Shown one piece after another: positions 3,601 to 62,958 of a stretch of DNA of 64,000 nucleotides. The DNA comes from Chiloscyllium plagiosum (Eukaryota): positions 4,596,161 to 4,660,160 of the forward strand of contig NC_057751.1 in assembly GCF_004010195.1 (NCBI RefSeq), given 5' to 3'. The notes beneath the pieces were generated by a model, which made no database searches, was not told where the DNA came from, and saw only the letters and a list, made by a program, of their open reading frames with translations. Positions within the stretch are counted from its first letter, which is position 1, and the number at the start of each line of letters is the position of its first letter. A program made the position numbers and the translations under genes.

Positions 3601-6600
3601 TGCAAAGGAAGATCCCTGCACACTCAGACATCGGGTGGACTCTTGTGGTAATGTCCTTTGCTCTGACCAAGCAGGCAAAGTTCCAGCCTATTCAGAGGGG
3701 TGTAATGACCTATTGGAACAGGTAGATCAGGGAGAATATCCACTCATAAACAGAGATCTTGCTCTGTCATAGAGAGTCACACACCACAGAAACAGACCCT
3801 TTTGTTCAACTCGTACAGACATCCCCATCTGACCTCGTCCCATTTGCCAGCACCCGGCCCATATCCCCCCAAACCCTTCCTATTCATATACCCATCCAAA
3901 TGCCTTTTAAATGCTGTAATTGTACCAACCTCCACCACTTCCTCTGGCAGCTCATTCCGTACACGTACCACCCTCTGTGTGAAAAAGTTGCCCCGTAGGT
4001 CTCTTTTATGTCTTTCCCCTCTCATCCTAAATCTATACCCTCTAGTTTTGGACTCCCCCATCCCAGGGAAAAGATTTTGTCTATTTATCCTATCCATGTT
4101 CCTCATGATTATATAAACCTCTATAAGGTCACCCTTCAGCCTCCGACGCTTCAGGGAAAACAGCCCCAGCCTATTGAGACTGTCCCTACAGGTCATATCC
4201 TCCAACCCTGGCAACATCCTTGTAAACCTTTTCTGAACTATTTCAAGTTCTATAACACCTGCCTATCTCCAAAAAGTGAATACCAAGTTATTTTCTTGTC
4301 CTTTGCTTGAATGAAGCAGGTGAACATATTTAAAGGTGACCGAGGGGTTGTATTCAATGTAATCTGGGATCACACTTACTGATCCATTCTGACAAGGGAC
4401 TACCAAAGCCTTGCACAAACACAAGCTTCCCCATCTGACACACATTTCTCCCAATTCTTTTCCTGCCTTCATGGGATGTGGACATTACTGGCTCAGCCAG
4501 CGTCTGTTACCCATCCCGAACTGTCCAGAGGGCATTCAAAAATAAGCCACATTGCTGTGGGTCTGCTGTCACATAAGAGTCACCGTTTCCTTCCTGAAAA
4601 GATATGAGTGAGGCGGATGGGTTTTTCCCTGACAGAGAGAGAGAGAGAGAGAGAAAAACCGTAAATATCTGGTACTGATGTGTGCATATGTGAGTGTTTT
4701 TGTCTGTGCATTGTGAGACTGTGTATATATGCAGAGCTGGAAATGTGTTGCTGGAAAAGCGCAGCAGTTCAGGCAGCATCCAGGGAACAGGAGAATCGAC
4801 GTTTCGGGCATAAGCCCTTCTTCAGGAATGAAGAAGGGCTTATGCCCGAAACGTCGATTCTCCTGTTCCCTGGATGCTGCCTGACCTGCTGCGCTTTTCC
4901 AGCAACACATTTCCAGCTCTGATCTCCAGCATCTGCAGACCTCACTTTCTCCTGTGTATATATGCATGACTGTATAATATATGCGTGACTGTATATGCAT
5001 GCATGTGTATCTGTGTTTCTATGTGCAATTTTATGTGTGTGTGGGTCTGTGTATCTCTGCATGTTTTTATGTGGGAGCCAGTGAATGAGCCTGATAGTGT
5101 GGGCGGCCTCTCAGTCCTAGGGAGTGTTGCTGAACAAAGAGACCTTGGAGCGCGTGCTCGTAGCTCCTTGAAAGTGGAGTCGCAGGTAGATAGGACAGTG
5201 AAGAAGGTGTTTGGTATGCTTTCCTTTCTTGGTCAGAGTATTGAGTACAGGAGTTGGGAGGTCATGTTGCGGCTGTACAGGACATTGGTTAGGCCACTAT
5301 TGGAATATTGTGTGCAATTCTGGTCTCCTTCCTATAGCAAAGATGTTGTGAAACTTGAAAAGGTTCAGAAAAGATCTACAAGGATGTTGCCAGGGTTGGA
5401 GGATTTGAGCTATAGGGAGAGGCTGAACAGGCTGGGACTGTTTTCCCTGGAGCGTCGGAGGCTGAGGGGTGACCTTATAGAGGTTTAGAAAATTATGAGA
5501 GGCACAGATAGGATAAATAGACAAAGTCTTTTCCCTGGGGTCGGGGATTCCAGAATGAGAGGACATAGGTTTAGGATGAGAGGGGAAAAATTTAAAAAGG
5601 ATGAAAGGGGCAATTTTTTCATGCAGAGGGTGGTGTGTGTATGGAATGAGCTGCCAGAGAAAGTAATGGAGGCTTGTACAATTACAATATTTAAAAGGCA
5701 TCTTTTAAATTGGAATTGGAAGAGTTCAGAGAGATATGGGCCAAGTGGTGGCAAATGGGACGAGATTAATTGAGGATATCTGGTCAGCATGGAGGAGTTG
5801 GACTGAAGGGTCTGTTTGCGTGCCGTACAGCTCTATGACTTGATGACTCAGTCCTGACAGAACATACTGCTTGTGAGCTGACTGCCACGGGGTACAGATT
5901 CCTGGCATCTGAATGATCCCATTCCAGATAAGTTCTACCGGCATGTTCGAACAAGTCATGGAGTGGAGCTGTATTCATCCAGCCACAAGCAGAAACTCCC
6001 CCAGCTCCCTTCGAGGGAAACCGATACCTCCTCCATTATCATAAGCAGAAGGTAAATACAGCAAAAGACCTTTCTGCAAGTTGTGGGGGATTGGGTCTGG
6101 AGCAAGACTCACAGCTGGATGCTGGGAGCTTGCTATAATCACTGAATGTCTCATCTTGACCTCACTGTGTGTGGATCAATTCCACTTGCCTTTCGATCAC
6201 AGACCGTATCCCACTCAGACCCATATCCCACCGTGCGTATTGATCACGGACCATATCCCACTCAGACCCATACCCCACTGTGCCTATCGATCACAGAGCA
6301 TATCCCGCTCAGACCCATATCCCACTGTGCCTATTGATCACAGAGAATATCCCACTCACACCCATATACCACCCTGCGTATTGATCACGGACCATATCCC
6401 ACTCAGACCCATATCCCACTGTTCCTATTGATTACAGAGCATATCCTACTCAGACCCATATCCCACTGTGCCTATTGGTCACAGAGCGTATCCTGCTCAG
6501 ACACATATCCCACTGTGCCTATTGATCACAGAGAATATCCCACTCACACCCATATACCACCGTACGTATTGATCACGGACCATATCCCACTCAGACCAAT

Positions 6601-9600
6601 ATCCCACCGTGCCTATCGATCACAGACAGAATCCTACTCAGACCCAAATCCCACAGTGCCTATCGATCACAGAGCATTTCCCACTCAGACCCATATCCCA
6701 CCGTGCCTATCGATCACAGAGCATATCCCACTCAGACCCATATCCCACTGTGCCTCTTGATCACAGAGCGTATCCAACTTAGACCCATATCCCACTGTGC
6801 CTATCAGTCACAGAGCATATCCCGCTCAGACCCATATCGCACTGTGCCTATTGATCACAGAGAATATCACACTCACACCCATATCCCACCGTGCGTATTG
6901 ATCACGGACCATATCCCACTCAGTCCAATATCCCACCGTGCCTATCGATCACAGACAGAATCCCACTCAGACCCATATCCCACTCAGACCCATATCCCAC
7001 TGTGCCTATCGATCACAGACCATAAACCACTCAGACCCAAGTCCCACTGTTCCTATTGATCACAGACCATATCCCACTCAGACACATATCCCACTGTGCC
7101 TATCGATCACAGACCGTATCCCACTCAGACCCATATCCCATTGTGCCTATCGATCGCAGACAGAATCCCACTCAGACCCATATCCCACTGTGCCTATCGA
7201 TCACAGACAGAATCCCATTCAGACCCATATCCCACTGTGCCTATCGATCACAGACCGTATCCCACACAGACCCTATCCCACCGTGCCTATCGATCACAGA
7301 GCATATCCCGCTCAGACCCATATCCCACCGCGCGTACTGATTACAGACAGTATCCTACTCAGACCCTTATCCCACTGTGCCTATCGATCACAGATCAAAT
7401 CCTACACAGACCCATACCCCATTGTGCCTATCGATCACAGACCGTATCCCACTCAGACCCATATCCCACCGTGCCTATCGATCACAGACCGTTTCCCACT
7501 CAGACCCATATCCCACTGTGCCTATCAGTCACAGAGCATATCCCGCTCAGACCCATATCCCACCGCGCGTACTGATTACAGACAGTATCCTACTCAGACC
7601 CTTATCCCACTGTGCCTATCGATCACAGACCATAAACCACTCAGACCCAAGTCCCACTGTTCCTATTGATCACAGACCATATCCCACTCAGACACATATC
7701 CCACTGTGCCTATCGAACACAGACCATATCCCACTCAGACACATATCCCACTGTTCCTATTGATCGCAGAGCGTATCCCGATCAGACACATATCCCACTG
7801 GTCCTATTTATCGCAGAGCGTATCCCAATCAGACACATATCCCACTGTTCCTATCGATCACAGACAATATCCCACTCAGACACATATCTCACTGTTCCTA
7901 TTGATCACAGACCATATCCCACTCAGACACATATCCCACTGTGCCTATCGAACACAGACCATATCCCACTCAGACACATATCCCACTGTTCCTATTGATC
8001 GCAGAGCGTATCCCGATCAGACACATATCCCACTGGTCCTATTTATCGCAGAGCGTATCCCAATCAGACACATATCCCACTGTTCCTATCGATCACAGAC
8101 AATATCCCACTCAGACACATATCTCACTGTTCCTATTGATCACAGACCATATCCCACTCAGACCCATATCCCACTGTACCTCTGAACACAGAGCGTATCC
8201 CACTTAGACCCATATTCCACTGTGCCTCCGGTCACAGAGCGTATCCCACTCAGACCCATATCCCACTGTGCCTATCGATCACAGACCGTATCCCGCTCAG
8301 ATCCATATCCCACTATGCCTATCGATTACAGACCGTATCCCACTCAGACCCATATCCCATTGTGCCTACCGATCACAGACCATATCCCACTCAGACCCAT
8401 ATCCCACTGCGCCTATCGATCACAGACAGAATCCCACTCAGACCCATATCCCACTGTGCCTATCGATCACAGACCGTATCCCACTCAGACCCATATCCCA
8501 CCGTGCCTATCAATCACAGAGCATATCCCGCTCAGACCCATATCCCACCGTGCGTACTGATTACAGATAGTATCCTACTCAGACCCTTATCCCACTGTGC
8601 CTATCGATCACAGATCAAATCCTACACAGACCCATACCCCATTGTGCCTATCGATCACAGACCGTATCCCACTCAGACCCATATCCCACCGTGCCTATCG
8701 ATCACAGACCGTTTCCCACTCAGACCCATATCCCACTGTGCCTATTGATCACAGACCGTATCCCACTCACACCCATATCCCACCGTGCGTATTGATCACG
8801 GACCATATCCCACTCAGTCCAATATCCCACCGTGCCTATCGATCACAGACAGAATCCCACNNNNNNNNNNNNNNNNNNNNNNNNNNNNNNNNNNNNNNNN
8901 NNNNNNNNNNNNNNNNNNNNNNNNNNNNNNNNNNNNNNNNNNNNNNNNNNNNNNNNNNNNNNNNNNNNNNNNNNNNNNNNNNNNNNNNNNNNNNNNNNNN
9001 NNNNNNNNNNNNNNNNNNNNNNNNNNNNNNNNNNNNNNNNNNNNNNNCCACTCAGACCCATATCCCACCGTGCCTATCAATCACAGACCGTATCCCGCAG
9101 AGACCCATATCACACTGTGCCTATCGATCACAGACCGGATCCCACTCAGACACATAAACACTATGCCTATCGATCACAGACAGAATCCCACTTAGACCCA
9201 TATCGCACGGTGCCTATCGATCATAGACCGTATCCCACACAGACCCATATCCCACCATGCCTATCGATCACAGACCAAATCCCACTCAGACCCATATCCC
9301 ACTGTTCCTATCAATCACAGACCATATCCTACACAGACCCATATCCTACTGTGCCTATCAATTACAGTCCATATCCCACTCTGACCCATATCCCACTGTG
9401 CCTATCGATCACTGAGCGTAGCCCGCTCAGACACATATCCCACTGTTCCTATTGATCACAGACCGTATCCCACTCAGATCCATATACCACTGTGCCTATT
9501 GATCACAGACCGTATCCCACTCAGACCCATATCCGACTGTGCCTATCGATCACAGACCATATCCCACTCAAACCCATATCCCACCGTGCCTATCGATCAC

Positions 9601-12600
9601 AGACCGTATCCCACACAGATCCATATCCCACTGTGCCTACCGATCACAGACGATATCCCACACAGACCCATATCCCATGTGCCTACCGATCACAGACCAT
9701 ATCCCACTCAGACCCATATCCCACCGTGCCGATCGATCACAGACCGTATCCCACACAGACCCATATCCCACCGTGCCTATCAATCACAGACCGTATCCCG
9801 CAGAGACCCATATCACACTGTGCCTATCGATCACAGACCGGATCCCACTCAGACACATAAACACTATGCCTATCGATCACAGACTGTATCCCACACAGAC
9901 CTATATCCCACTGTGCCTACCCATCACAGACCATATCCCACTCAGACCCATATACCACCATGCCTATCGATCACAGACAGAATCCCACACAGACCCATAT
10001 CCCACTGTGCCTATCGATCACAGACCATATCCTACTCAAACCCATATCCCACCGTGCCTATTGATCACAGACAGTATCCCACTCAGACCCATATCCCACT
10101 GTGCCTATTGATCACAGACCGTATCCCACTCAGACCCATATCCCACTGTGCCTATTGATCACAGTGCATATCCCACTCAGATCCATCTCCACAGAAATGG
10201 AGTGAAGAAGTGCTTGTACTGTGCTTGTACGGTTAACTCTGCCTCTGCACAGATGCTGCCTGAGCTGCTGAGTTTCTGATTCTGCATCATACTCACTGGA
10301 TAGAGAGGATTGCTTGTCACCTCAGTCCCATCTTTCAAGTAGTATGTCTCGGAGTAGTTATTCGCAATGAGCTGCCTGTGAAAGGGAAGGGAGAATGAAA
10401 GTGGACACCTTTCATGGCTTTGGAATAATGCAGCAATGCTGCGATATGACGTGCATGTACTTGCTAGCGGACATGTTTAAAACTACTGACTATCACCATC
10501 CACATCAACAAGGTGGAAGATTTAACCTCACGATCCATCAGATGAACTGAACACTTACTCATTCTTCTCAAGGTGCACCACTTGCTCCTTGCCGTCCACC
10601 GGAACCTCAAACTGAATAACCGATGGATGAAGCCCCTGCCAGAGGAGAGATGGCAAAATTCAACTCAATGTCAACTTTCCCCACCTGCCTATTGTCACTT
10701 CTCTTGTTCAAACCTGTCTCTCATCTGCTCATGGTTTCTGATTCTGGACCAGTCGCCTTACAGAGCATTCTTGCCTCCAGTCCCACTTCCTCTGTTGTAA
10801 TAGAAGCCCAGTCCCAACGCTGTCATTACATCTGGCTCAGTGCTCATAACCAGAACTACCCTGTCTGCTCTTGCAGTTCCCCCTCTGTCACTGTACCCCT
10901 GTGTTTCTGTCTCATTGTAAATCCTGCTCACTGTTACTCTGCTGTCAGTTTATCCCAACGTTCTTGTCTAAGGAGAAACCCCTCAGACCGTCCACCTTTC
11001 AGACATTCTGTTGGAACCATCAATCCCGTGCCTACCGATGGTACTGATTAAAGTCAGTTTTATACAATAACCCGTGTTGTTGGTGAGAAACGTGCTGTTC
11101 CTGGGTGTCACACAGTACCTCACTCGTTCGTCTGTGCTTTGTGTGGAGCCTCCTGGGGATCACCACTTGGTAATTCTGGACGTCAGGTAGTTTGGAAGCC
11201 GCTAAAATTGCTGTGAACACACAACCGAACATTGGTCAGACCGTGGGGTGACCCAAAGACACTGACTGAAGTTACAGGCTGATGGTGGGGATGGGTTGAG
11301 CCTTCAGTGATTGGGGCTGTTAATCTGGTGTAATCAGGGAGCCCAGGCTGACATGAAAGGTTGAAGGTCAGTGACACTGGGCGCTGCTAAATATCCAACT
11401 CATGAAGAGGCAGTGCTATAGTCAAAGGCTGTGTATTTGTAAATACAAGGTGATTGGGGATGGGATACCGGTCTCTGAAGAGCCTTTTCAGGATGTGCCC
11501 ATGGCACGTGGGTAAAAGGAAACTTTGGTCAAATGAAGAGCAGGTTTGAGCTTGACCTGTGCAGCTTCAGAGCAGAATAGGCAATGAGTGTTGCTCCAGC
11601 CAAATGATCACAGCAGAGCCCAGCACAGCACAGCACAGTACAATCCGGCACAGCATAGCACAGTAGAGTCCAGCTTAGCATAGTATAGCACAGCACAGCA
11701 CAGCAGAGCCCAGCACAGCACAGTACAACCCAGCACAGTGCAGCACAGTAGAGTCCAGCTTAGCATAGTATGGCACAGCACAGCACAGCAGAGCCCAGCA
11801 CAGCACAGTTCAACTCAGCACAGCACAGCACAGCACAGCAGAGTCCAGCTTAGCATAGTATGGCACAGCACAGCACAGCAGAGGCCAGCACAGCACAGTA
11901 CAACCCAGCACAGTGCAGCACAGTAGAGTCCAGCTTAGCATAGTATGGCATAGCACAGCACAGCAGAGCCCAGCACAGCAGAGCAGAACCCAGTGCAGCA
12001 CTGCGCAGCACAGCACAGCACAGTCCAGCCCGGCACAGCACAGCATGGCACATCACAGCACAGCATAGCACAGCAGAACCCAGCACAGCACAGCCCGGCA
12101 CAGTGCAACACAGCAGAACTCAGCACAGCACAGCGCAGCATGGCACAGCACAGCACAGCACAGCAGAACCCAGTGCAGCAAAGCTCAGCCAGTACAGCAT
12201 GGCATGGCACAGCACAGCGCAGCCCAGCACAGCCCAGCCCAACACAGCACAGCATGGCACAGCAGAGCAGAGCCCAACATAGTACAGCACAGCACAGCAC
12301 AGCACAGCAGAGCCCAGCACAGCTTGGCACAGCGCAGCAGGGCCCAGCATAGCACAGCAGAACTCAGCACAGCACAGCACAACCCACCACAGCATGGCAC
12401 AGCAGAGCAGAGGGATCAAGGATAATGGCATGAGTCACCAAGCTGATCCCCATTCCCTCTCCCAAAGTGAGTGCCCAGGTCCCTTTGAACCAGTGAAGGA
12501 CTCACAAGCAGGAGAGATAGAAGGAGTGAAGTCCATTCGGCCCCTTGAGCATGCTCTCCACCACTCAATAGCCATCACTGCTAATCTTCAACTCCACTTT

Positions 12601-18077: not shown

Positions 18078-18515
18078 AAGACAATAAGGACGGCAGATGT
18101 TGTAAGTCAGAGTCAATAGATGTGAAGCTGGAAAAGCACAGCAGGTCAGACTGCACCCAAGGAGCAGGAAAGTCAACATTTCAGGCCGAGCCCCTATGTC
18201 CTGATGAAGGGTTTCAATCCAAAACGTTGATTTTCCAGCTCCTCAGACGCTGCCTGACCTGCTGCTTCTCAACGTGCAGGGAGCAGCAATGGCTTAAAGC
18301 ACAAGATAAAGCACTGACCACAATACCACGAAATAAAACCAAGCACTGCAGATACTGGAAATCGGAAACAAAAATACAGACTGCCGCAGAAACTCATCAA
18401 GCCTGGCAACATCCACAGACAGAAAGTAGACAAAGGGTCACTGGACTTCAAGTGTGAATGCTGTTTTTCTCTCTACAGATACTGCCAGACCTGTTGAGTT
18501 TTTCCAGCAATTTTT
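18078..18515. mobile_element. Two degenerate Penelope-like inverted-repeat elements
   Basis: ctgatgaagggtttcaatccaaaacgttg motif flanked by inverted ggaaagtcaac/gttgattttcc; second imperfect hairpin ~18340-18515. Confidence 0.65.
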
Positions 18516-18789
18516 GGATGACACAACCCTCTTCCCAAGTTCAGCGTTGGGGGCTCAGCAATGAGGACAGACCACGTGGACAAGGCATGTTACGGTAAGA
18601 CATGGGAACATGCACACGTGAGCCTGTGTGTGTGTATTTGTGTGTGTGAGAGAGAGAGAGGGGTACAGAAACATACAGAGAGGTAGAGATGCAACATGCA
18701 CGTGTGAGCTTGACTATGCCTGTCACATATTTAGTGAGCTGATGACACCATCAGTCAGAGCTACACAGACAGAGAAAAGTTGGATGACC

Positions 18790-21232: not shown

Positions 21233-22207
21233 CCATTTGATCCTATCATGGCTGATCTCCTCTCAGTCCTCGCTCCACTGTCCCACCCTCTTCCCATAGC
21301 CCGTCAAGCCGTTAATCGTTAAAACTCTCTCTGTTTTGTCCTTAAATTTATTCACTGTCCTAGCATCCAATGCACATATTCACAGTCCTTTGAAAGAGGA
21401 GATTTATCCTCATCTCCGTTTTAAATCTGCTGCCCCTTCTCCGAAAATGATGACCTCTCGTTCTAGAGGAAACATCCACTTGGTCAATCACCTTTAGAAT
21501 TTTATGTACCTCAGTCAGATCTCCTCTCTTTGTTCCAAACCCATCAAAGCGGGTCCCTGATACACATATGAATGTTCATTCTTACAAGCACAGTCCTATG
21601 CAGGGTTGTCATGTTAAAGAGCTGACATATGAACATTTCCTGAACTTACCAACAGTTGTTTGATATTGTCCTGTCTGGTGTTCCAACTAGTATACAAATG
21701 AACTTGTCAATCACCTCCAGGAATGAGCCTGTCCACAGCCCTAGGGCTGCCTGTATAGGCCTAAGGTGCACAATCTCTCTTCAGAAGGCAAGCCCCTGAG
21801 CTCTGGAATCAATCTGGTGAACCTCCTCTGAACTGAGTGCAATGCAACTACATCCCTCCTCAACGAAGAGGGAACAAAGGCAGAATGAGAGTGCATGGGG
21901 AGGCAGGCAAATCGAGAGACCTTGTTCTTAGAAGAGAGATGAAGATTGAAAGTAACCTTCAGATTGAAGATCATACTGAGGTGGAGCTCAACAGAGTGGT
22001 CAGAGAGTCATAGATCTGTACGGCACAAAAACAGACCATTTGGTCCAACTCATCCACACCGACCAGACTTAACCCATATCCCTCTAAACTCTCCCTATTC
22101 ATATCTCCATCCAGATGCCTTTTAAATGTTGTAATTGTACCAGCTTCCACCACTTCCTCTGGCAGCTCATTCCATACACGTACCACCCTCTGTGTGAAAA
22201 GGTTGCT
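21233..22207. repeat. Left copy of ~970 bp inverted duplication (partner 48356-49322)
   Basis: Reverse complement nearly identical; ORF track shows the same 77 aa peptide at 21741-21974(-) and within 48323-48814(+). Confidence 0.95.
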
Positions 22208-22650
22208 CCTTTGGTCCCTGTTAAATCTGTCCCCTCTCACCCTAAACCTATGCCCTCTAGTTCTAGACTCCCTGACGCCAGGGAAAAGACTTTGTCTATT
22301 TACCCTATCCATGCCCCTCATGATTTTATAAACCACTGTAAGGTCACCCCTCAGCCTCCGACGCGCCAGGGAATACATCACCAGCCTATTCAGCCTCTCC
22401 CTTTAGCTCAAATCCTCCAACTTTGGCAAAATCCTTATAAATCTATTGTGAACCCTTGCAGGTTTCACAACATCTTTCCTCTTGGAAGATCAGATTTGCA
22501 TGAAGTATTCCAAAAGTGGGCTCAGCAATATCCTGTACAGCTCCACCATGACCTCCCAACCCCCATACTCAATACAGTGACTAATGAAAGCAAGTGCACA
22601 ACAGCTTCTTCAGCCACCCTGTCTACCTGCAACTCCACTTTCAAGGAATT
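21995..22650 (-). mobile_element. CR1-type LINE 3' portion
   Basis: ORF 21971-22381 RRRLRGDLTVVYKIMRG...FTQRVVRVWNELPEEVV. Confidence 0.9.
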
Positions 22651-23069
22651 ATCACCGGGAAAGGGAAACAAATGACAGGAAATGAAAGAGAGATAGAACA
22701 ATAGCTTCCAGATCTGGGGTAGTTGAGCAAAGAGGAGCTGAGGGTGACCAGAACACTATTAAATGGTGCAGCATGGTCTTCTGCTTTCATTTCCTGTGTT
22801 CATCATAAATGCCCCATGCCCACCTATCTCACTAGGACACTCACATCCAGATCCAGTGATGGAAGGGGGCACTGACAGAATTACAATTAGCTTTATTGTC
22901 ACATGTACTCACATAACTACAGTGCAAGGTTTCCAAGTCACTGCATTACAGCGCCATCTTCGTACCAACTACAAATTCTAAGGGACAAACAAAGAGAAAA
23001 ATTTAAAGAAGCAAAAAGTGCAGAATAACACTCCGTCCTGTCCAGTCCATGGTGGCAACTCGTCTCCGT

Positions 23070-27190: not shown

Positions 27191-27196
27191 AGTGTG

Positions 27197-28194: not shown

Positions 28195-29380
28195 ATGTAT
28201 TTTCCAAGGGTAATGATTGAAAAAATATACCACACCATCTTTGCCATTGTTGGTATTCTTGTAACAGCTTATGCTATATAAATCTCTGCAGTTAATCATA
28301 CTTATTTCCACTGTAGGACTGGTAATTAATTTATTTCCATTTAGCGAGGCCGGATGATAGTGTCCTCACTTTCTCAATGTAAAGTAGATGCATTGTCAAT
28401 GTGAAGGCTCCTTGGTAATGTGCAGTATTGTGTGGTTCTCTGCACTGTGCCCAATGGGTTTGCACTGAGGCTGCATTGATAGAGCTTGGTTGAGCACTGG
28501 CCCTGGCTGGTCGAGAAAGTGTTTAGCAAGACTGCTCTCTCTCTCTCTCTGTGGTCGTTCAAAGCCTGCTATTGGTCAGATAGGTTTTGGAACAACCCAC
28601 CTCTGAGTGACAGCTTGTTTTGCCAATTCCTTGATGTGAAGGGATTGTGTTGGTGGATCTCGTAGCTTGCTCCAGTGGGAGCCCAGATACAATGTGGGCA
28701 ATGGGTGGGTTCAGTAGGTCATTATGGAGTAATCAATGAGGGTCAGCACAGATGGCTCCAACTATGCTGTATGTTTTCATCAGTCAATGTGTGTGTGGGG
28801 TCATGATATTTGTGAGGGGTGTTCAATGGGATGGGTCTTGAGCACAGGGTTCCAATTATGATGTTGAATCATTTGATTGTCAAAAAGATGTGTGAATTGT
28901 GCTATTTATTTAAAAAAAAAGATGCACAGGACTGTGGTACAGAGTTAAATAGCAGAAAGTGAGGACTGCAGATGCTGGAGATCAGAGTCAAGAGTGTGGT
29001 GTTGGCCCGGCAGCATCCGAGGAGCAGGAGAATCGACAGTCTGGGCAAAAACCCCCCATCAGGATGAAGGGCTTGTGCCTGAAACATCAACCCTCCCCCT
29101 CCCCGGACGCCGCCTGACTCACCGTGCCTCTCCAGCACCACACTCTCAACACACACAGTTAAATAGAACCAATGCCACTTGTCCACCAGAATGTTTCCAC
29201 CTCGCCATTTGTTGCTGATATTCTTTGGTGTTCCCCGAATGATAATGATCTCTGCGAACGTCCTCACATGGGCGTTTGTATAGGATTATCATTTCATTTT
29301 TGGCTATTAATTTAAATCTGTATTTTATTGTTATTTTTCTGATTGTTATTGCTATTTTATTGGCAGGGAAATTTGGACAT
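28195..29380 (+). pseudogene. Possible relic of a GPR139-like class A GPCR (TM1 region only)
   Basis: 28195-28260 MYFPRVMIEKIYHTIFAIVGIL and 29348-29380 IAILLAGKFGH resemble recalled shark GPR139-like N-termini; splice sites not intact, remainder not found. Confidence 0.3.
28953..29156. mobile_element. Penelope-like-derived palindromic insertion, older, 10 bp TSD
   Basis: Imperfect hairpin related to 4732-4953; agttaaatag at 28943-28952 and 29157-29166. Confidence 0.75.
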
Positions 29381-30277: not shown

Positions 30278-30901
30278 TCTGTTGCCAGACTACTCAGACC
30301 CCTTGGCATCATGGTAGCCCACAAAACCCACCAACGGACTAAAACAGCAGCAAATGAACTTGAAAGACCCTATACAGACAATAAGCAAAACTAACGTCAT
30401 TTACAAAATACCGTGCAAGGACTATAACAAACATTGCATTGGACAAACAGGCAGAAAACTAGCCACCAGGATACATGAATACCAACTCGCCACAAAAAGA
30501 CAGGACCCTCTCTCACACGTATCCCCACATACGGATGAGGAAGGACACCACTTCGACTGGGACAACACATCCATCCTAGGACAAGCCAAACAATGACACG
30601 CACGGGAATTCCTCGAACTCTATCAAAAAACACATCGAGTTAGACCCCATCTACCACCCCGTGAGAAAAGGAACAGGGAGTGACTTTACCACAGGAAATA
30701 ACATCACCACAGGAAATGACATTACCAACCCAAAGAAACTCAAACATATAAATAGAAAGCAGGGATTTTCAGCATTGCTTCGCCTGAGGCCCACAAAGAC
30801 GTTACCTAATAGGGTAATGAAACGTCTGGAAATGAATCTTTCAGCTCAAAGAGCCAACCTACATCCCAGACCTCAACCTGAGCTCCAAATCTTCTCAAAA
30901 C
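30278..30901 (+). mobile_element. Penelope-like element 3' fragment (GIY-YIG endonuclease) inserted into a SINE
   Basis: ORF 30354-30596 NVIYKIPCKDYNKHCIGQTGRKLATRIHEY...HFDWDNTSILG; TSD ttgcacattct at 30267-30277 and 30902-30912; host SINE resumes to ~31030. Confidence 0.92.
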
Positions 30902-31119
30902 TTGCACATTCTCCCTGACTTTGCGAGGGTTTCCCCCGGGTGCTCCGGATTCCTCCCACAGTTCAAAGATGTGCAGGCCAGGTGGATTGGCTGTGTTAAA
31001 TTACTTACAGTGCCCAGAGTTGTGCAGTCTTTCCCTGCTGACCCATCACTGAGACAGCGAGCCACAAACAGGAGAGAATAAGACAGCCCCCATTTGAATA
31101 GTCCATCTTGCAGCCCCCT

Positions 31120-32717: not shown

Positions 32718-33000
32718 ACATTTCAACTCCCCCTCCCAATCTGCCGAGGACATGGAGGTCCTGGGCGTCCTTCACCGCTGCTCCCTCACCACCAGACGCC
32801 TGGAGGAAGAACGCCTCATCTTCCGCCTCGGAACTCTTCAACCCCAGGGCATCAATGTCCCCCACCCTCCTCTCATTTATCTCTCCACCCTTCAGGCTCT
32901 CTGCCTGTATTCCTGATGAAGGGCTTTTGCCCGAAATGTCGATTTTCCCGCTCCTCGGATGCTGCCTGAACTGCTGTGCTTTTCCAGCACCATTCTAATC
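32718..33000 (+). mobile_element. Penelope-like element 3' end (GIY-YIG C-terminus plus pseudo-LTR)
   Basis: HFNSPSQSAEDMEVLG...RRLEEERLIFRLGTLQPQGIN followed by ctgatgaagggcttttgcccgaaatgtc. Confidence 0.88.
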
Positions 33001-35405
33001 TAAACTCCTGTGTTAAAAGCAATCCCTAGTTTCTCTGGGTTTCTCAATGTTTTGTTTGTGGGGATTTGCTGCCATCTAGTGAGCAGTCTCAAAAGCTCTG
33101 TATTCAAATAGAAGGGGGAAATACAGCGTGCAAACTCCGGGTTACAGGCACCACCATTCTCCCAGGGTCTGCACACGGAGAGATAGAGGGAAAGTGGTGC
33201 AGACAAACCTAAGGAGCGATGGAGTGAGTGAAAGGAAGAAACACAAGCAGGGTGGGAGCGGAAACAAAGGGAAAATGAGAGAGACAAGAAGAGGGAAAGG
33301 GAGAGAAAGAGAAGGCTGAGTGAGAGGAAAGAATAGGATGGTGAGGAACAGGAGAGGGAGGGTGAAAGGGGTCAAGGGGGAAGTCAGGGAGAGCAGAGGG
33401 AGGAGTTATTGTTGCCGAGGAGGCTATTTGGCCCATTGTGATTGTGGTGGCTCTTCAAACAAGCATCATGCCAAATGCCTAGCTTACCCCCCCCCCCCCC
33501 CACCCTACACATTATTATTGTCCAAATAACCATCCAATGCTACAACTGAACCTGCCTCCACCACACTTCCAGACAGTGTATTCCCAGACGTGACGACTTG
33601 CAGGGTGAACTAAGGCTTCCTCACCTCGCATTTGCTACTTTCGCAAATCACTTTCAATCTGTGACCTCCCGTTCTTGATCCTTGGCTCATTGTCCCACTC
33701 CACCTTTTTGTTTTAATCTGCAAAAGTGAGAGCACAGGTAGTTCAAAGTTACCGAATTAAACATCGTACCAAGATCAGGTTTGAAACAATAGGATTTATC
33801 GACCAAGTTACCCGACTGACACAATCATTGGTTGATTGTCAAAAAGAAGTATCAAAATGCAATAACCAGTTGACAGACACAGTCAGTCGTGTTTGTTTAT
33901 CCCTCCAAACATCCTCAAAACACACTCTCATCACAAAAAGAAAATACAACAACAGGCTTCGAGGCAAAGATTGGTTTTCTGGCAAAAAAATACTTTGGCT
34001 GCTGGGTTATTTTTGAAGGCAAGGTGGTAAAGTGTCGGATTATCCAGTGACTGTTTCTCTGATGTTCTGGTGTGTTCGCCCAGTCAGTAATCATGCACAG
34101 TTGCCTCTGAAACTTTGCAGACACAGCTTGCTCAGGAACTACAATTTCAACACAAAAGAAACTGCCAAGAAAAGCTCAGCAGATCTGGCATCATTGGTGG
34201 AAGGAAGTCTGTTAACATTTCCGGTTCAGTGACCCTTCCTGTTTTTCTGTTTTTGTTTCTGATTTCCAGCATCCACAGCTCAGTGGGTTTTAAACTTGAG
34301 ATGCTCTTTCAATCACTCTTACAAAACAGCAAAAGGGCTTCAGTTCAAATTCACCAAGAACACTTTCTTCCCATTTCATGAGACAGGGGCTGTGGATGAA
34401 AACCAGTGTGGAGATCACGTGATTTGATAGCAATGTTCCACTGAGACGTTTCCTATTGATGACGTACAGAGCACACAAGATGTGAAGTCTCTACCTTGTC
34501 TCAACATAATGCAAAGACAAACATCAATGTCCAGGTGAGGTCACTTAGACTAGTTGAGTGCAATAAATGTTGGCCTTTGGCACCTCTGTGAAACTTTCTT
34601 CGATTGGAAGGAGTTTGAATCAACATCAGATGAGGGCAGGGTGTAATTCATATGTGGACACTCTTATCTCGTTTACATATCGAGGCGATGTGAACCTGTT
34701 GGGAGAAAGGGAATGAAACAGGAAGAGAAAGAAGGAGGGAGAAACAAAGACAGTACACCACATTCCCAAAAGAGTTGAGTTGAACTGTTGTCCGCCATCT
34801 GATTCCTGCAGCAAGGAACAATCTCTGCAAGAGGGTTTAAGATCAAAATCAGAGGTGAGGACAGAACTGGCTGGTGCAGTACAAGTCATTGTGTGAAGGA
34901 GATTGAAGAGGTCAGTTTGTGAAAGGTTTCAGTTTCAGTCATGTTGGCAGCAAGAGGGATCCACAGACAGACAAGGAGTCAGTAAGAGAGGAGAAACACA
35001 CTCAGTGAAGGCTAGCAGCATACAAACAGCCGAACGGAAGTCACTTTGGCTAAAATACAGTGAAACAGTTGGAAACCAGCTGACAATAGCTGACACCTAG
35101 TCAGATAACTGTAATGGCCTGTATAAATCTTGGAGGTGTCTGAAACCTATACCAGAGTTTCACTTTCCTTTTCCCAGGAAAAAGACTGGCTCTCCCTGCT
35201 ACTGGAACCTGCTTTCCTGAGACCTCTGACCACTTTGCCAAGTTTTCTGAGAACTGATACGTTTCCCTTCTTTCACATTTGACTAGGGTACAACCTGTTT
35301 CACTGTCATTGGTTCATTTCACCTGAGCATGCGTCAGACTTGTCAAAATATTTCTAAACCAGAATAACCTTTAAATAGCCACCAGAGGGACAGACACAGA
35401 GTGAA

Positions 35406-41419: not shown

Positions 41420-42120
41420 TCATAGAGTCATAGCATCACACAGCACGGAAACAGACCCTTCGGTCCAACCAGTCCGTGCTGACTATAATCCCAAACTAAA
41501 CCAATCCCATCTGCCTGCTCCTGGCTCATATCCCTGCAAATATTTCTTATCCATGTCCTTATCCAAATTTGTTTTAAATGCTGTAACTGTCCCCGCATCT
41601 ACCACTTCCTCCACAAGTTCATTCCACACACAAACCACTCTCTGTGTAAAAGAATTGGCCCTCATGTCTTTCTTAAACCTTTCTCCTCTCACTTAAAAAT
41701 ATGCCCCCTCGTCTTGAAATCCTCTATCCCAGGGAATAGACAACTGCCATTCACCTTATCTATACGTCTTATGATTTTATAAATCTCTATAAGGTCACCT
41801 CTCAACCTCCTACGTTCCATGAAACAGGTCCCAGACTATCCAGCCTCTCCTTTTAGCTCAAACCCTCCATTCCCAGCAACATCCTGGTAAATCTCTCCTG
41901 AACCCTTTGCAGCTTTAATGATATCCTTGCTCTAACAGGGAGACCAGAACTGGAGACAGTACTCCAGTGGAGGCCTCACGAACATCCTGGACACCCTCAA
42001 CACAATGTCCCCATTCCTATATGCGTGAACAATGAAAGCAAGCATGCTAAATACTTTCTTAACCACCTTATCCAAACGTGATCAAAACTTCAAAGAATTA
42101 TGTCCCTGAACTCTAATGTC
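41420..42120 (-). mobile_element. CR1-type LINE 3' portion
   Basis: ORF 41483-41692 FTQRVVCVWNELVEEVV...; upstream LEYCLQFWSP-like coding. Confidence 0.88.
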
Positions 42121-43183: not shown

Positions 43184-43684
43184 GGACAGGCAGGAGGCTG
43201 GAAGAACACAGCAAGCTGGGCAGCACCTGGAGGTGGAGAAGTCAACGTTTTGGGTGTGACCCTTCTTCAGGACTGGGGGGTGGGTGTAGAGGGAGCTGCA
43301 GATAAAGGGGGTGATGGGGAAGGGCTGTGGGTAGGGAGAGGGGTGGGATGGTAAGTCAGGGGTAGGTAGAAGGTATAACCTGGTTGGTCGATGGGAGGGA
43401 TGAATGTGGTTAGTGGCTGGAAGGAAGGGTTGATGAGAGGAATAGAAGGGAGGGGGAGGGATTGGGAAGGGATTCAGGAGATGGGAAGGAAGGTAACTTG
43501 AAATTGGAGAACTCCATGTGGTGCCCTCCTTTGATCTGCAGCCAGTCCTGAAGAAGGGTTACACCCGAAACGTTGACTTCTCCACCTCCAGGTGCTGCCC
43601 AGCTTGCTGTGTTCTTCCAGCCTCCTGCCTGTCTACTCTGGATTCCAGCATCTGCAGGGTTTTTTGTCTCTAGCTGAGGAAATT
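43184..43684 (-). mobile_element. Penelope-like element with inverted pseudo-LTRs
   Basis: Arms 43185-43276 / 43542-43633; spacer carries ORF end MEFSNFK and a pyrimidine tract on minus; possible TSD cctccaa(c/t)ga 43174-43183 / 43685-43694. Confidence 0.85.
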
Positions 43685-48167: not shown

Positions 48168-48555
48168 TTGGAGAGGCTGAACAGGCTGGGGCTGTATTCC
48201 CTGGAGTGTCGGAGGCTGAGGGGTGACCTTATAGAGGTTTATAAAATCATGAGGGGCATGGGTAGGGTACTTGATCAAGGTCTGGGGTGGGGTAATCCAG
48301 AACTGGAGGGCATAAGTTTAAGATGAGAGTGGAAAAATATAAAAGGGTTCGAAGCAGCAACCTTTTCACGCAGAGGGTGGTACGTGTATGGAATGAGCTG
48401 CCAGAGGAAGTGGTGGAAGCTGGTACAATGACAACATTTAAAAGGCATCTGGATGGAGATATGAATAGGGAGAGTTTAGAGGGATATGGGTTAAGTCTGG
48501 TCGGTGTGGATGAGTTGGACCAAATGGTCTGTTTTTGTGCCGTACAGCTCTATGA
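48168..48555 (+). mobile_element. CR1-type LINE 3' end
   Basis: ERLNRLGLYSLECRRLRGDLIEVYKIMRG; FTQRVVRVWNELPEEVV. Confidence 0.9.
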
Positions 48556-49322: not shown

Positions 49323-49391
49323 TCTACCCCTGCTCTGAGTTCTTTTACAATGTGATAATGATCAGATTCTTGTTTTGTTAATTGTAGTAGA

Positions 49392-49590
49392 GATGCCAGT
49401 GTTGGACTAGATTGGAGAAGATCAAAAATCACACTTCACCAGGTTACAGGTCAACGGGTTAATGTGTAAACAGTAGCTTTCAGAACACTGCTCCTGGTGA
49501 AACTGCAGGCATACATTGAGCATGATGCAGTGAGAACGTTGAGAACATCTGGTGGGAATTCACCTGGTATTGTGTGATTTTTGACCTTAT
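49392..49590. mobile_element. Degenerate Penelope-like inverted-repeat element (family of 62340-62460)
   Basis: aaaaatcacacttcaccagg ... cctggtattgtgtgattttt inverted pair. Confidence 0.65.
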
Positions 49591-55209: not shown

Positions 55210-55510
55210 GCACAGAAACAGATGGAGAAACTCAGTAGGTCTGGCAGCATCTGTGGAGAGAGAGAGAGAGAGAGAGACCAGAGCTAAGTTTTTGAATCTG
55301 ATGACCTTTCTTTAGAACAGAAGTATTTTATTTGAACTCTGGACTGGGCTGACATTTAGCTGGTGATGCTAGAAAATGCCTGGTGGCTGGACAGTTCATG
55401 TTTTGAGTCGGTGACCCTCGATGAAGGGTCTGCTTCATTCGGTTTCTCTCTCCACAGATGCTGCCAGACTTGCTGAGTTTCTCCAGCACACTCTGTTTTA
55501 TTTTCAGAAT
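55210..55510. mobile_element. Degenerate Penelope-like inverted-repeat element (related: 34150-34290, 56370-56550, 56840-56935, 60125-60270)
   Basis: ggagaaactcagtaggtctggcagcatctgtggagag is inverted relative to ctctccacagatgctgccagacttgctgagtttctcc. Confidence 0.7.
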
Positions 55511-58500
55511 GAATGAATACATTCTTGATGCCATCGACAACTCAGGTCCCTGGGGATTCCCGAATCAAAACTAATCCTAACCATCAACTGCAATGTGTTG
55601 TCGAGGGGAGTGGACTCTTGTGAAAAATGGAACAAGGAAGGTTGAAATTGATAGAGCTCTTATCTTGACCGGGGGACACCTTCAAGGCTCTCACTGCCCC
55701 TGTTTAAGGATAGTCGTTCCGTCGAATTGGGTAAGGAGGTGGGAGGGGTGATTTAAGAGAATCAAAGCCAACGAGGCTACATGTCGAAATTAAACAGGAT
55801 GGCATGGTAGGCTCAGAGACTGAGGGATTCTAGCTTCAATCTCCAGATGACATTCTCAGCTTTCCTCCTCTGCTGTTTGGAGCTGGCCTGCTCTCTGCTC
55901 TCTGTTTGTGTGTCGCTCAGGGGAAAGCCAGTCTTGGCCACACCAGGCCTTCCCCTGACGTTGTGCTGAGCTCAGGAAACGCACAGCCCCTCAGTCTGGC
56001 TCCAACTGAGTTGCGAGGTTCTTGGAGTCAGCCACAGAGAATCAATGAAATCGCAATGTTCAAAATAAAATCCCATGACCCCTGGTTCTTGGGCAAACAG
56101 GAACCAGTTGGCTGTTACGTCGGACCCAGAAAGCCTGGAGAGAAAGCCAATGACAACTGACCTTTCTCACGTCCCCCAGCGACCGGAGAGAAAGCGGCAA
56201 TGTTCCAATCGACTGACCCAGAGGAGCATCATAGTGGCAGTCACCCAGCTCAGACATTCCTCAGCGGGGTTACAGTAAAAACAGGAGGCTGGTACATCCA
56301 CCAAAAACATTGCATGTGCTGCAAAGCTGAAAGAGAAGAGGAACAAGGTACAAGAAGGCAAGAAGATATACTTAATGTTTCGGATCCAGTGACCCTTCTT
56401 CAGAAGCCTACTGGTGAAAGGTCATTGCACCCGAAACGCTTTCTGTCCACAGGCACTGAGAGACTTGCTGAGTCTTTCCAACAATTTCTGGTTTTGTTTC
56501 TGATTTCTGCTTTTTGTTTCTGATTTCCAGCACACGCAGTTCTTTCGGTTTTCACTTGAATAAGATACTCTTGTTATGCTGCTCGAGGACATGGACAGAA
56601 TTTGCTGAAACAGGGAAAACATAGTTTTGGGTGAAATAGCATCACCCCATACTTGATCTCACATCAGCCTCACCCCCAGCATTATTTTACACTGAACAGC
56701 TGTGGGAAGACAGGGCTTCAGCATGAAGAGGAGGTAGGAGCGGGAGATGGGAAGGCAAGGAAGAAGAGGGTGATGGGATGTGGTGAGGTGGGAAAGAGGA
56801 TAAGGTGATAGGAGGTCCTGATGCAGCAAGGGTTTGGACCAAAACAGAAATTGCTGTAAAAGCTCAGCAGGTCGGGCAGCAACTGTGGAGAGAAATCAGA
56901 GTTAATGTTTCAGGTGCAGTGACCCTTCCTCAGAACCAGAATGGTTCGGACCAATTTGGTCCACATTGAATTCTGAAGCAATGTATGATATTTATATGCA
57001 TCAATTTTACAAAGGAGCCATTCAGCCCAACAGCTTGTGATTGCCCTCTACTGTAGCCTTCTCTCACCCCAACTTCAAGCAATGCTGAGCAACAACAACA
57101 ACAACACTTGTCATTTGTCTAGTCTCTTTCCTGTAATAAGAGAGCTCTCTCTGCGCTGTGATCTGCAAGCTGTGTTTTGCCTGGAGAAGTAGCAAGAGGA
57201 AGTTGCTTTGCTCCAGCTCAAATCAATGCCAAGCCAAACCCTAACCAGCTGTTGGGTCATTTGGCCGGTTTCAATTTTCCATGGTGTATTTTCGTGGTTT
57301 GATTTGTTACACACAATCAAAGCTCTTTGCGATATTTCTCAATTCTGAGAGATCTTCTGAGGTGAAGCAAAATCAAAGTGTCTTCACTGAAACCACAGAA
57401 CAAAGGAATGACACTTAGGAATGCTCCACGCGAACACCCTTTGAAGTTCTCACACGGGATGTTTGTCCCACTTTCTGCAGCACTGGGTGAGATTGCTGTC
57501 AGCTATGTCTTCGCATGCAGACACAGAAAACTCAAAATGTCAGCACTCACGGTTAAAACAAAACCATGCAGTGGTATCAGCCAGGGTTTGGGTCATTGTG
57601 AAAGCAAGGTCATTGATTCTCCTTTCCTGGCGCGTGGCAGGAGCTGTTGGGCACAGCATTTCTCACTCATCCTAACTGCCCTGGAGAAAGTGGCAAGCCA
57701 ACTTCTGGAATCCTGGCCTTCAGGATCGGTTCACGCCATTGGTGGCACCTTTGATCCAATCATCAGCTTCCCAACATATCCATGCCATCTCAGAGAGCCC
57801 TGTGTTCAGCTCTCCATCATCGCCCGACCTCAGCCACATTTCAGTCCGTCTGCTGCTCAATCCCCCATCCAGGCCTCTGTTACCCTCCAACACACTGTCC
57901 CCCTTCACCCCCCCACTCCCAACAACACCTCACACCCATACCTCACCTCTCCCACAACCCTCTCGCACATTCTGGCTCCCACAGATGGCAGATCAGCTAA
58001 AGCTCTGCTCTCTGTAATCCATTCCCCCCCCCTGCACAGTGCCTCCATCGGCCCCNNNNNNNNNNNNNNNNNNNNNNNNNNNNNNNNNNNNNNNNNNNNN
58101 NNNNNNNNNNNNNNNNNNNNNNNNNNNNNNNNNNNNNNNNNNNNNNNNNNNNNNNNNNNNNNNNNNNNNNNNNNNNNNNNNNNNNNNNNNNNNNNNNNNN
58201 NNNNNNNNNNNNNNNNNNNNNNNNNNNNNNNNNNNNNNNNNNNNNNNNNNNNNNNNNNNNNNNNNNNNNNNNNNNNNNNNNNNNNNNNNNNNNNNNNNNN
58301 NNNNNNNNNNNNNNNNNNNNNNNNNNNNNNNNNNNNNNNNNNNNNCGACTGACCCTGGGCTCCAGCTCAAACACACACTTCCATTTCAAATTGTCATCCT
58401 CTTTCCAAATCTCGGCTCCCTATCTCTGTAAGCTCTTCCAGTCCCTACAGCCTTCCCTATCTCTGTAACCTCCTCCAACTCCTGCATCCTCTGTTTCCAT

Positions 58501-62200: not shown

Positions 62201-62334
62201 TTCAGTTTCAAAATATGCTTTTCTAAAAAGAAAATGGTGACAGCCACAGGTGAGAACAGTGCAGATGTTAGTTCAGGGATGGGCAAAGTCCTGTGTGCAA
62301 CCCATGGAATATCGCACCTGGAAGGAGTCAAAAT

Positions 62335-62590
62335 TTGGAGATGCCAGTGTTGGACTTGGGTGGACAAAATTAAAAATCCCACAACACCAGGTTACAGTCC
62401 AACAGATTTATTTGGAAGCACTAACTTTCGGAGCGCCACTCCTTCATCAGGTGGTTGTAGACTATTAAGTTGGAGGGCACAGAATTTATAGCAAAAGTTT
62501 ATAGTGTGATGTAACTGAAATGATATATTGAAAACGATCTGGATTGTTTGTTTAATCTCTCATCTTTTAGAATGGGCATGGTGGTTTCAT
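62335..62590 (-). mobile_element. Penelope-like pseudo-LTR with hammerhead-like motif
   Basis: Minus strand cacctgatgaaggagtggcgctccgaaagttagtg (62419-62453) followed by aaataaatctgttggac...ctggtgttgtg. Confidence 0.75.
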
Positions 62591-62738
62591 TCTCTTTAAA
62601 TAAGGACAGACAAGTTATGCTGCAGCTTTATAGAATTTTAGTTGGGCTACACTTAGAAAATTGCATACAGTCCTGGTCACCACACTACCAGAAGGATAAG
62701 ATTCCTTGCAGTGTGGAAACAGGTCCTTTGACCAAACA

Positions 62739-62958
62739 AGAGCTTAAAAATGTGTTGCTGGAAAAGCGCAGCAGGTCAGGCAGCATCAAAGGAGAAGGAG
62801 AATCGACATTTCGGGCATAAGCCCTTCTTCAGGAATGATTCCTGAAGAAGGGTTTATGCCCGAAACGTCGATTCTCCTTCTCCTTTGATGCTGCCTGACC
62901 AGCTGCGCTTTTCCAGCAACACATTTTTAAGCTCTGATCTCCAGCCCTCACCTTCTCC
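62739..62958. mobile_element. Penelope-like-derived palindromic insertion with 17 bp TSD, inside a SINE tail
   Basis: 98 bp arms 62739-62836 / 62838-62935 with 3 mismatches; tcctttgaccaaacaag at 62724-62740 and 62956-62972. Confidence 0.88.

Follow-up and report, generated by a model that had tools for sequence, protein, structure and literature searches.

Minimal hammerhead ribozymes of Penelope-like elements (PLEs) were described by Cervera and De la Pena (2014, PMC4209133), together with their extra base and their covariation, and the motif reported here is therefore not new. The Anolis Poseidon element PAc mainly uses uncut RNA as its substrate in vitro, and cleavage by its hammerhead needs protein (Frangieh et al. 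2024, PMC11167929). U6/LINE-1 chimeras are made by RtcB ligation, for which the partner needs a 5'-OH (Moldovan et al. 2019, PMC6789731). Here we analysed a stretch of 64,000 nucleotides of Chiloscyllium plagiosum (the window; contig NC_057751.1) and compared it with other parts of the genome. Our main reading, to which we assign a probability of about 0.75, is that the window holds minimal type I hammerheads in PLE pseudo-LTRs, that the short copies were mostly reverse-transcribed from uncut, likely capped RNA starting 4-8 bases before the core, and that the ribozyme likely cuts a minority of germ-line RNAs.

Hammerhead motifs and their Penelope-like families

The seven hammerhead sequences quoted in a previous sequence-only reading were each found in place (Table 1). 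The recurring architecture that it proposed was recovered by a descriptor (core, helix II of at least 4 bp, GAAA..U-H, helix I of at least 2 bp, 0 or 1 extra base allowed), which matched eight motifs in the window: six of the seven quoted sites and two others, at 56933(-) and 62832(-). The degenerate copy at 30791, whose core is broken, was outside these eight. Two hundred dinucleotide shuffles of the window gave a mean of 0.01 motifs and a maximum of 1. The dense multi-family population claimed from the sequence was also confirmed, with 97,649 exact matches to one core pattern in the 3.56-Gb genome; further exact matches numbered 15,351, and reversed controls gave 0. The motif is short and loose, and Rfam hammerhead models, a comparison that the same reading had proposed, matched nothing in the window at E up to 5 (the best-scoring models were hairpin look-alikes); however, the shuffles and the reversed controls refute an origin by chance matching, to which we give practically no credence.

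Table 1. Hammerhead-related features of the window (positions are those of the 64,000-nucleotide stretch).
Feature	Position	Strand	Remark
Family A (Neptune-type) head-to-head insertion, short and long arm, 15-nt target duplication	4732..4952	.	
Minimal hammerhead, family A1; C3 at 4825, predicted cut 3' of 4798	4794..4829	-	
Family A inverted pair, old, decayed	18079..18265	.	74-78% identity
Family C/F copy, decayed; both strands match	18341..18516	.	
Family A inverted pair, old, decayed	28954..29148	.	70-80% identity
Family D (Poseidon-type) 3' end: GIY-YIG remnant, pseudo-LTR and tail	30283..30902	+	
GIY-YIG endonuclease remnant, 91 aa	30318..30590	+	
Family D hammerhead, core broken; intact relatives CCA CUGAAGA U GUUACC	30791..30829	+	
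Neptune-type GIY-YIG domain, C-terminal part, 45 aa	32722..32856	+	
TTTATC, putative TATA-like box, 33 nt upstream of inferred start	32876..32881	+	sequence; position kept in native copies
Minimal hammerhead, family A2; inferred transcript start A 32909, H17 at 32940	32909..32944	+	
Family C tail pieces, decayed	34169..34299	.	
Family A5 inverted insertion; minus arm retains native upstream, TTTATC ~32 nt before start A	43185..43657	.	
Minimal hammerhead, family A5; 4-bp helix I (AGUC/GACU), H17 at 43574	43544..43578	+	
Family B copy, decayed	49390..49495	-	
Family C/F pieces, decayed	55212..55508	.	
Minimal hammerhead, family C, decayed; partner on opposite strand 56416-56551	56371..56406	-	
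Family C copy: hammerhead (C3 at 56933) and tail	56838..56937	-	absent from the sequence-only reading
Family B pseudo-LTR piece, long tail	62333..62589	-	
AATAAA polyadenylation signal, 10 nt past predicted cut	62407..62412	-	sequence; family B counts; poly(A) reads in relative
Minimal hammerhead, family B; helix I CAC/GUG; AGUU here against family helix III AGCU; H17 at 62422	62419..62453	-	
Putative TATAAA box, 32 nt upstream of inferred start A (62458)	62485..62490	-	sequence; conserved position
Family A head-to-head insertion, 16-nt target duplication; hammerheads C3 62832(-), 62842(+)	62739..62945	.	
Minimal hammerhead in the 62739..62945 insertion	62838..62872	+	G at 62837 precedes inferred start A 62838
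Family A long tail; its hammerhead just past window end	63915..64000	-	

All eight motifs carry exactly one extra nucleotide after CUGANGA, as had been noticed, and so do 84 of 85 matches in 1.19 Mb of contiguous non-N genome when 0, 1 or 2 were allowed; this base was rejected as a distinctive feature because it is an already published trait (PMC4209133). The core runs CUGANGA ... GAAA ... UH in type I order. An unpaired base between positions 9 and 10.1 is present, as in PLE minimal hammerheads, the first helix II pair (10.1-11.1) is G-C or G-U in nine of nine representatives, and a palindromic 4-mer stands in place of an intramolecular helix III. This 4-mer was ACGU in 40, AGCU in 10 and a CpG-decay form in 18 of 74 matches; several of the quoted copies are decayed here (ACAU, AUGU or AGUU instead of ACGU or AGCU). 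Covariation at the family level supports the claim that the core is conserved while the stems differ and still pair. Over nine representatives 68 of 72 pairs form (permutation mean 48; 4 of 100,000 permutations reach 68), and a separate count gave 84% paired (0 of 500 shuffles as high); both counts are partly circular because the descriptor itself required helices I and II. Compensatory changes across families occur in these two helices, with the same partial circularity, and the helix III palindrome is swapped between families from ACGU to AGCU.

Both GIY-YIG remnants that had been proposed upstream of hammerheads proved real by identity to longer frames. The remnant at 30318-30590 is 85% identical to a frame with a weak PF01541 match (E 0.003) and that at 32722-32856 is 71% identical to a frame passing the Pfam cut-off for PF01541; searched alone, the two window remnants matched no GIY-YIG model in Pfam, and 25 further window ORFs matched no Pfam family. 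In one element copy (L156), hammerheads 3,135 nt apart stand on both sides of a reverse transcriptase (RT) frame; this hammerhead-ORF-hammerhead arrangement was found in one copy, and the RVT_1 match (E 7e-5) is below the cut-off. A location of the motif in repeats flanking an RT and GIY-YIG ORF is shown for families other than C, E, F and A5. Family A frames have C-X4-C-X2-C between RT and the C-terminal GIY-YIG, in agreement with the CX2-5CxxC linker of Neptune; Nematis has the same linker. The family B endonuclease is 28% identical to that of family A. The clade names of families B and D are presumptive and based on motifs. No intact full-length element was present in 26 genome stretches examined, in which assembly gaps fall inside young copies and interrupt the longest one, and the sequence past the tail did not lead into a common ORF start. 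Almost every copy in the genome is a dead fragment. We assign the motifs to the minimal type I hammerheads and place them in pseudo-LTRs belonging to several Penelope-like families. The overall interpretation made from the sequence alone therefore stands, but it missed the coincidence of the short helix I with the probable transcript start and the U6 fusions as an indirect sign of activity.

Copy starts, the extra G and inverted pairs

Copy starts cluster just upstream of the core and peak at an initiator-like A about 30 nt past a TATA(-like) box, which lies at -30 to -33 from this A in two unrelated pseudo-LTRs. Among 195 tail-anchored family A copies, 79 have their start in the 15-nt zone before and at C3, 6 in the adjoining 26 nt further upstream and 1 precisely at the cut site. 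The corresponding numbers in family B (n=43) are 21, 0 and 0, and family D has no start peak (1/7). An extra G precedes the start A in 59 of the first 100 of 10,918 matches (15/100 two bases away, Fisher p 1e-10) and, for a second pattern, in 68 of the first 100 of 3,971 matches (31/100 two bases away, Fisher p 3e-7); in an unbiased sample the excess was weak (8/17 vs. 34/135, p 0.08). Sixty loci were inspected and 43 had the G, all with unrelated or inverted upstream DNA. A subfamily origin of the G was rejected because the flanks are unrelated, and a splice origin because native copies have no AG before the start. The G is likely cap-derived, and these boundaries suggest the uncut, probably capped front end of the element RNA as the template of many copies. 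RNA read data, which are 3'-type single-cell reads and cannot show starts or cuts, had no position where many molecules begin or end.

The same 5' boundary might be produced by RT stalling or by fold-back (self-priming, possibly on an antisense template), the G being a by-product of terminal transferase activity or repair. Starts are broadly spread (from -14 to +24), many of them at fold-back microhomologies, 37 of the 79 family A starts are at short palindromes in inverted pairs, and a self-priming model was proposed for rotifer Penelope (PMC3846280). However, the G excess is confined to one position per family, 30-33 nt past the box in two unrelated pseudo-LTRs, and 18 of the 43 copies with the G are non-inverted with foreign flanks, which makes this explanation unlikely. 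The short units could also be considered independent non-autonomous elements (retrozyme- or MITE-like), spread via ribozyme-cut circular RNAs or as hairpin units. In its favour are a very high copy number, hairpin-shaped units with fixed ends, and target duplications (mode 15 nt in family A), and also the derivation of retrozymes from PLEs (bioRxiv 2026.07.22.740005). We nevertheless regard it as very improbable. The window has no head-to-tail tandem array of hammerhead units, the mark of retrozymes, and the copies are solo or head to head; the units begin upstream of the core and not at the cut; and short copies have no TATA box. Moreover, the inverted junctions vary between copies, indicating that each inverted pair formed anew. 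One arm was long and the other short in 92 of 96 inverted pairs, and most copies have approximately 90-130 nt per arm.

Cut site, U6 fusions and the transcript 3' end

Genomic starts at the cut site numbered 1,068, compared to 767 and 597 at the neighbouring positions (only 1.4 to 1.8-fold), and the truncation share was equal for cut-site and neighbour loci (9/20 in both samples). A peak of genomic starts at the cut was rejected, as this small excess cannot be told apart from the effects of CpG mutation and of the GATTC microhomology shared by capped start and cut site. Five of 33 U6 3' ends are fused to a Penelope tail, and all five junctions are at +1, the predicted cut. These fusions involve five different tails from two families; each junction reads five T followed by +1, with no microhomology and within one insertion. 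An Rfam U6 match is present in two of them (L309 and L310), while the other three have U6 3' pieces only; target duplications accompany L308, L309 and L310. The junction is identical in both arms of the inverted pairs L309 and L310, which points to a chimeric RNA template. As far as genomic sequence can tell, the fusions suggest that the ribozyme sometimes cuts in living cells.

Penelope hammerheads might instead be inactive in vivo, with the +1 junctions due to a protein nuclease or to RT pausing at the structured core and switching template there. The low in vitro activity reported in the literature agrees with this, the active dimer was never the lowest-energy fold, genomic starts have no clear peak at +1, and U6 is also fused to tRNA-SINE-like starts, which have no ribozyme. 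By contrast, all five junctions coincide with the predicted bond, in two families of different sequence, and only one of 195 ordinary copies begins there; the -4 and -8 ends are far more frequent but have none; two recur in both arms; and core and palindrome are retained across families. Complete inactivity is consequently improbable in our judgement.

An AATAAA or ATTAAA signal is present in 92 of 125 family B copies, rare in family A (12/203) and absent in family D (0/49). In the RNA of a relative, poly(A) reads end at +29 (438) and +32 (526) from the cut; they come from approximately 2% of one single-cell run of another species and may stem from host transcripts. With polyadenylation about 30 nt past the cut, family B transcripts likely carry a ribozyme at both ends.

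In the mechanism that we propose for copying of uncut RNA, Pol II would start at the A about 30 nt past the TATA(-like) box; the 5' strand of helix I would then be the first bases of the transcript and therefore could not be long. The endonuclease would nick both strands approximately 14-16 nt apart, and RT would prime at two internal sites, approximately 60 and 95 nt past the cut site, and extend to the cap, which it would copy as G. Head-to-head joining of two cDNAs of this kind would give the inverted pairs. In family B, the poly(A) signal just past the ribozyme would put a second ribozyme copy at the 3' end of the full transcript, which would make pairing of the two ends via the palindromic helix III possible. 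Cleavage, probably protein-assisted, would leave a 5'-OH, a substrate for joining to U6 by an RtcB-type ligase. More tentatively, and at somewhat less than even odds, the shark-like Neptune pseudo-LTR may be a retroviral-like U3-R-U5 in which R is almost only the hammerhead, with transcription starting 4-8 nt ahead of the core and ending, for family B, about 30 nt past the cut. The cap-side and poly(A)-side hammerheads of a full transcript would pair via the palindrome, and cleavage, acting as a switch or opening the way to a circle, would strip off cap and tail. Both states would have left a genomic record, uncut RNA in the cap-G copies and cut RNA in the U6 fusions.

Comparison with known systems

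These data bear on whether Penelope hammerheads cut in vivo and on which RNA the elements copy. The genome preserves fossil events in the hundreds of thousands, which place the probable transcript start with single-base precision, supply the counts behind a rule for inverted insertions and, by way of the U6 fusions, hint at cleavage of the predicted bond; exact constructs and predictions thereby become available for these elements. An open-access literature search found no paper on a cap G, a U6 fusion or a poly(A) site in PLEs; nor did we find the start and G footprints, the U6 junctions at the cut, the poly(A) site or the long-plus-short rule in published work.

The motifs share with those of PMC4209133 the type I order, the short helix I, the unpaired base between positions 9 and 10.1, the G10.1-C11.1 pair, the palindromic 15.2-16.2 and the presence of several covarying families per genome, mostly as single truncated copies. 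They differ in a helix II of mostly 4-5 bp and in a copy number at least 10-fold above the 4,000 (coelacanth) and 9,000 (Xenopus) given there; copy starts, the cap-type G, U6 fusions and the poly(A) site are mapped here and not in the consulted sections of that paper. As in Anolis PAc (PMC11167929), two internal RT start sites probably bound the tail, both strands would be nicked and the hammerhead is probably aided by protein, and the uncut-RNA model agrees with the in vitro results for PAc. By contrast, Anolis yielded no reads at the cut site, whereas U6 fusions mark it here, and the PAc ORF starts in helix II, while in the families described here the ORF start was not found.

Endonuclease-bearing (EN+) PLEs of the Neptune and Penelope/Poseidon clades (Craig et al. 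2021, PMC8557442; Arkhipova et al. 2013, PMC3846280) likewise have 5' truncation, an inverted pseudo-LTR, a 30-40 bp tail at one end, target duplications, a TATA and Inr-like sequence in a rotifer pLTR and the Neptune zinc-finger linker. Instead of the 8-10 nt of these accounts, target duplications here have a mode of 15 nt in family A; the long-plus-short rule is counted here, and the arms are mostly short (about 90-130 nt). Drosophila virilis Penelope (Schostak et al. 2008, PMC2377424) also has a promoter inside the pseudo-LTR and a start upstream of the hammerhead, but it is TATA-less, with a 75-bp intron 46 bp past the start, whereas a TATA(-like) box is present here and the inferred start precedes the core by only 4-8 nt. 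Non-LTR retrozymes (PMC7229834; bioRxiv 2026.07.22.740005) are PLE-related, have type I hammerheads and occur in a chondrichthyan; they form head-to-tail tandem arrays, typically of canonical hammerheads, in contrast to the dispersed solo or head-to-head copies described here. Finally, as in the U6/LINE-1 chimeras (PMC6789731), a U6 3' end with a T tract is joined to a 5'-truncated retroelement; the L1-U6 junctions vary and their nuclease is given as unknown, whereas all five junctions found here are at one predicted ribozyme bond.

Motif abundance, structure and element families

The motifs quoted in the sequence-only reading were all present, each in its place, in the window sequence. A structural descriptor returned 8 motifs there versus a mean of 0.01 over 200 shuffles, and the extra base after CUGANGA was seen in 8/8. 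Across the 3.56 Gb genome, the family A and family B patterns gave 97,649 and 15,351 exact matches respectively (reversed controls, 0 in both cases). Contiguous non-N DNA (1.19 Mb) held 85 strict motifs, and the copies anchored on their tails numbered 245 for families A, B and D combined; extrapolated from this sample, the genome total is estimated at several hundred thousand copies.

The proposal that stems differ between families and still pair was borne out: 68/72 scored pairs were kept over nine representatives versus 48 on permutation, although the counts carry some circularity and come from related families. The first pair of helix I varied (C-G, U-A or A-U in the nine representatives), and the helix III palindrome ACGU was swapped for AGCU between families. 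Alignment-tool scoring, in which two family B rows were displaced by one column, gave 84% paired (0/500 shuffles as high). The best co-fold exceeded the active dimer in stability by 5 to 28 kcal/mol, which would agree with activity that is weak or helped by protein.

Upstream of family A copies are frames that combine a C-X4-C-X2-C linker with a GIY-YIG domain. The reverse transcriptase (RT) match upstream of these copies was below the cut-off (E 7e-5); in stretch L156, an RT frame lies between two hammerheads 3,135 nt apart, with assembly gaps inside. A separate GIY-YIG-like frame, 28% identical to that of family A, lies approximately 620 nt upstream of family B, and a different GIY-YIG frame precedes family D. 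This linkage covers families A, B and D; no ORF was linked to C, E, F or A5. Families A and B are probably Neptune and D Poseidon, in part on motifs typical of these clades. The other basis is the linker, as described in PMC8557442. Retrovirus-like protease and RT frames were interrupted by a family A element in L003. Family A insertions were present at the short-arm end of family B tails in L115, L225, L191 and L164, the first two having duplications of 13-15 nt, a possible target preference between families. The long stop-free frames of the 23-mer minisatellite in the window were rejected as genes.

Coordinates of features in the window and in other stretches (L) and contigs (C) of the genome
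Feature	Location	Remark
U6-Penelope fusions at predicted cut	L307-L311; G000 C1, C3, C7, C31, C52879	5/5
Large minisatellites, units 47-, 5-, 23-, 28/48-bp	window 6182-10190, 11609-12409, 23074-27190, 35924-37245
Many LINE 3' fragments and tRNA-SINE-like repeats	window 3777-5832, 21971-22675, 27196-27361, 41649-42063, 48170-48372	LINE fragments presumably CR1-like
Family B tail: AATAAA or ATTAAA and GU-rich stretch	L123:1540-1590; window 62407-62412(-)
Frame near Poseidon-type copy	L106:8424-9245(-)	presumably resembles a TRIM RING + B-box gene

Copy starts and the predicted cut site

Copy starts were mapped by anchoring on the tail, independently of the core, leaving out those whose boundary held an N. 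In family A (n=195), 79 copies started from -14 to 0 relative to core residue C3, 6 from -40 to -15 and 43 further upstream. Another 52 began within the core itself, 6 fell from -2 to +3 around the predicted cut (1 exactly there), and 9 started later. The corresponding numbers in family B (n=43) were 21, 0, 13, 3, 2 (0 exactly at the cut) and 4. Only 1/7 family D copies started near the core. Genome-wide, a non-native base preceded A(-4) of family A1 in 10,918 matches versus 2,512 at -6, and A(-8) of family B gave 3,971 matches versus 2,196 at -6. Preceding bases were tallied in the first 100 matches listed: G 59, A 28 and T 13 before A(-4) (G 15, A 28, T 57 at -6; a tally by hand, all on contig 1), and G 68, A 9 and T 23 before A(-8) (G 31, A 25, T 44 at -6). 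The G excess was significant in both (Fisher p of 1e-10 in family A1 and 3e-7 in family B). TATAAA lay at -30 or -32 from A(-8) in 20/25 native family B copies, and TTTATC at -31 or -33 from A(-4) in 22/43 native family A copies.

From the start pile-up, the preceding G and the spacing of the TATA or TATA-like box, we read A(-4) and A(-8) as putative Pol II starts, the cap being copied as G. LINE-1 offers a precedent for such copying, for which our literature search gave no paper. Against this reading, the G excess in the unbiased sample was only 8/17 versus 34/135 (p 0.08), and many copy starts are fold-back junctions. Among 60 loci inspected, the upstream DNA of the 43 G copies was inverted in 25 and unrelated in 18, two of the 18 being alike. 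Loose family A read ends at -4 recurred in runs of two other organisms, where transcript starts are not separable from genomic copies, and no site with many molecule ends was among those listed. In family D (L092-L111), TATAAA was present 45-53 nt before C3 in 18/24 native copies; this would place the start 15-23 nt upstream of the core, yet the 7 unbiased copies showed no peak of starts.

Ordinary copy starts at the predicted cut are rare. With a purine at H17 the cut-site pattern matched 1,068 times, versus 767 and 597 for the neighbouring controls; truncations made up 9/20 sampled loci, equal to the control (9/20). A genome pattern search for U6 small RNA 3' ends, which omits about a quarter of them (C at last position), returned 33 matches, 14 examined as locus sequence and the rest judged from 17 bases. 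A Penelope tail was joined to five of the 33, always at +1 after five T and never at -4 or -8. The five tails were all different (families A2 and B). The junction was present on both arms of an inverted pair in L309 and L310, suggesting that a chimeric RNA served as template. Hammerhead cleavage leaves a 5'-OH end. RtcB joins U6 to 5'-OH ends, according to PMC6789731. The junctions at +1 may be an indirect sign of cleavage at the predicted bond. Other U6 3' ends were followed by a tRNA-SINE-like start (approximately 9 of 33; L319 and L320 are among the U6 loci) or by apparent coding sequence of another LINE family (L313, L315), and C21, C25 and C89242 hold probable U6 gene clusters.

Copy 3' ends and family B polyadenylation

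One long and one short arm were found in 70/74 inverted pairs of family A and 22/22 of family B, a set that includes loci picked by pattern. Long arms ended at +97 (family A) or +93 (family B), and short arms stopped around +55 to +65. In family A the mode of the longest flanking repeat was 15 nt, versus 4-5 in random flanks. The two intact inverted pairs of the window kept the long-plus-short rule, with duplications of 15 and 16 nt.

AATAAA or ATTAAA was present in 92/125 family B copies, with 90 having it at +10 or +12, in 12/203 family A copies and in 0/49 family D copies. Reads of a family B copy from one single-cell run, made on a related species, were strongly stranded, with poly(A) behind +29 in 438 reads and behind +32 in 526. 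Such poly(A) reads stop between the hexamer and the GU-rich stretch of the tail. Host read-through could be the source of these reads, and no comparable poly(A) row was among those listed for three contig runs. With more than 15,000 copies, the family B tail may provide poly(A) sites for host genes.

Comparison with known elements

The extra base, offered by the sequence-only reading as distinctive, is not new: Cervera and De la Pena 2014 (PMC4209133) describe the same motif with an unpaired base between positions 9 and 10.1, together with the palindrome, the covariation between families and dispersed single copies. In the open-access literature searched, no prior description was found of the start, cap-type G, U6-fusion, poly(A) or long-plus-short arm footprints in Penelope-like elements, and these footprints turn open questions on such elements into testable ones. 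The motif set itself is very abundant and belongs to the known minimal-hammerhead kind. Arm lengths and duplications fit what PMC11167929 sets out for PAc, the Poseidon element of Anolis, in which RT starts at two internal sites and both strands are nicked.
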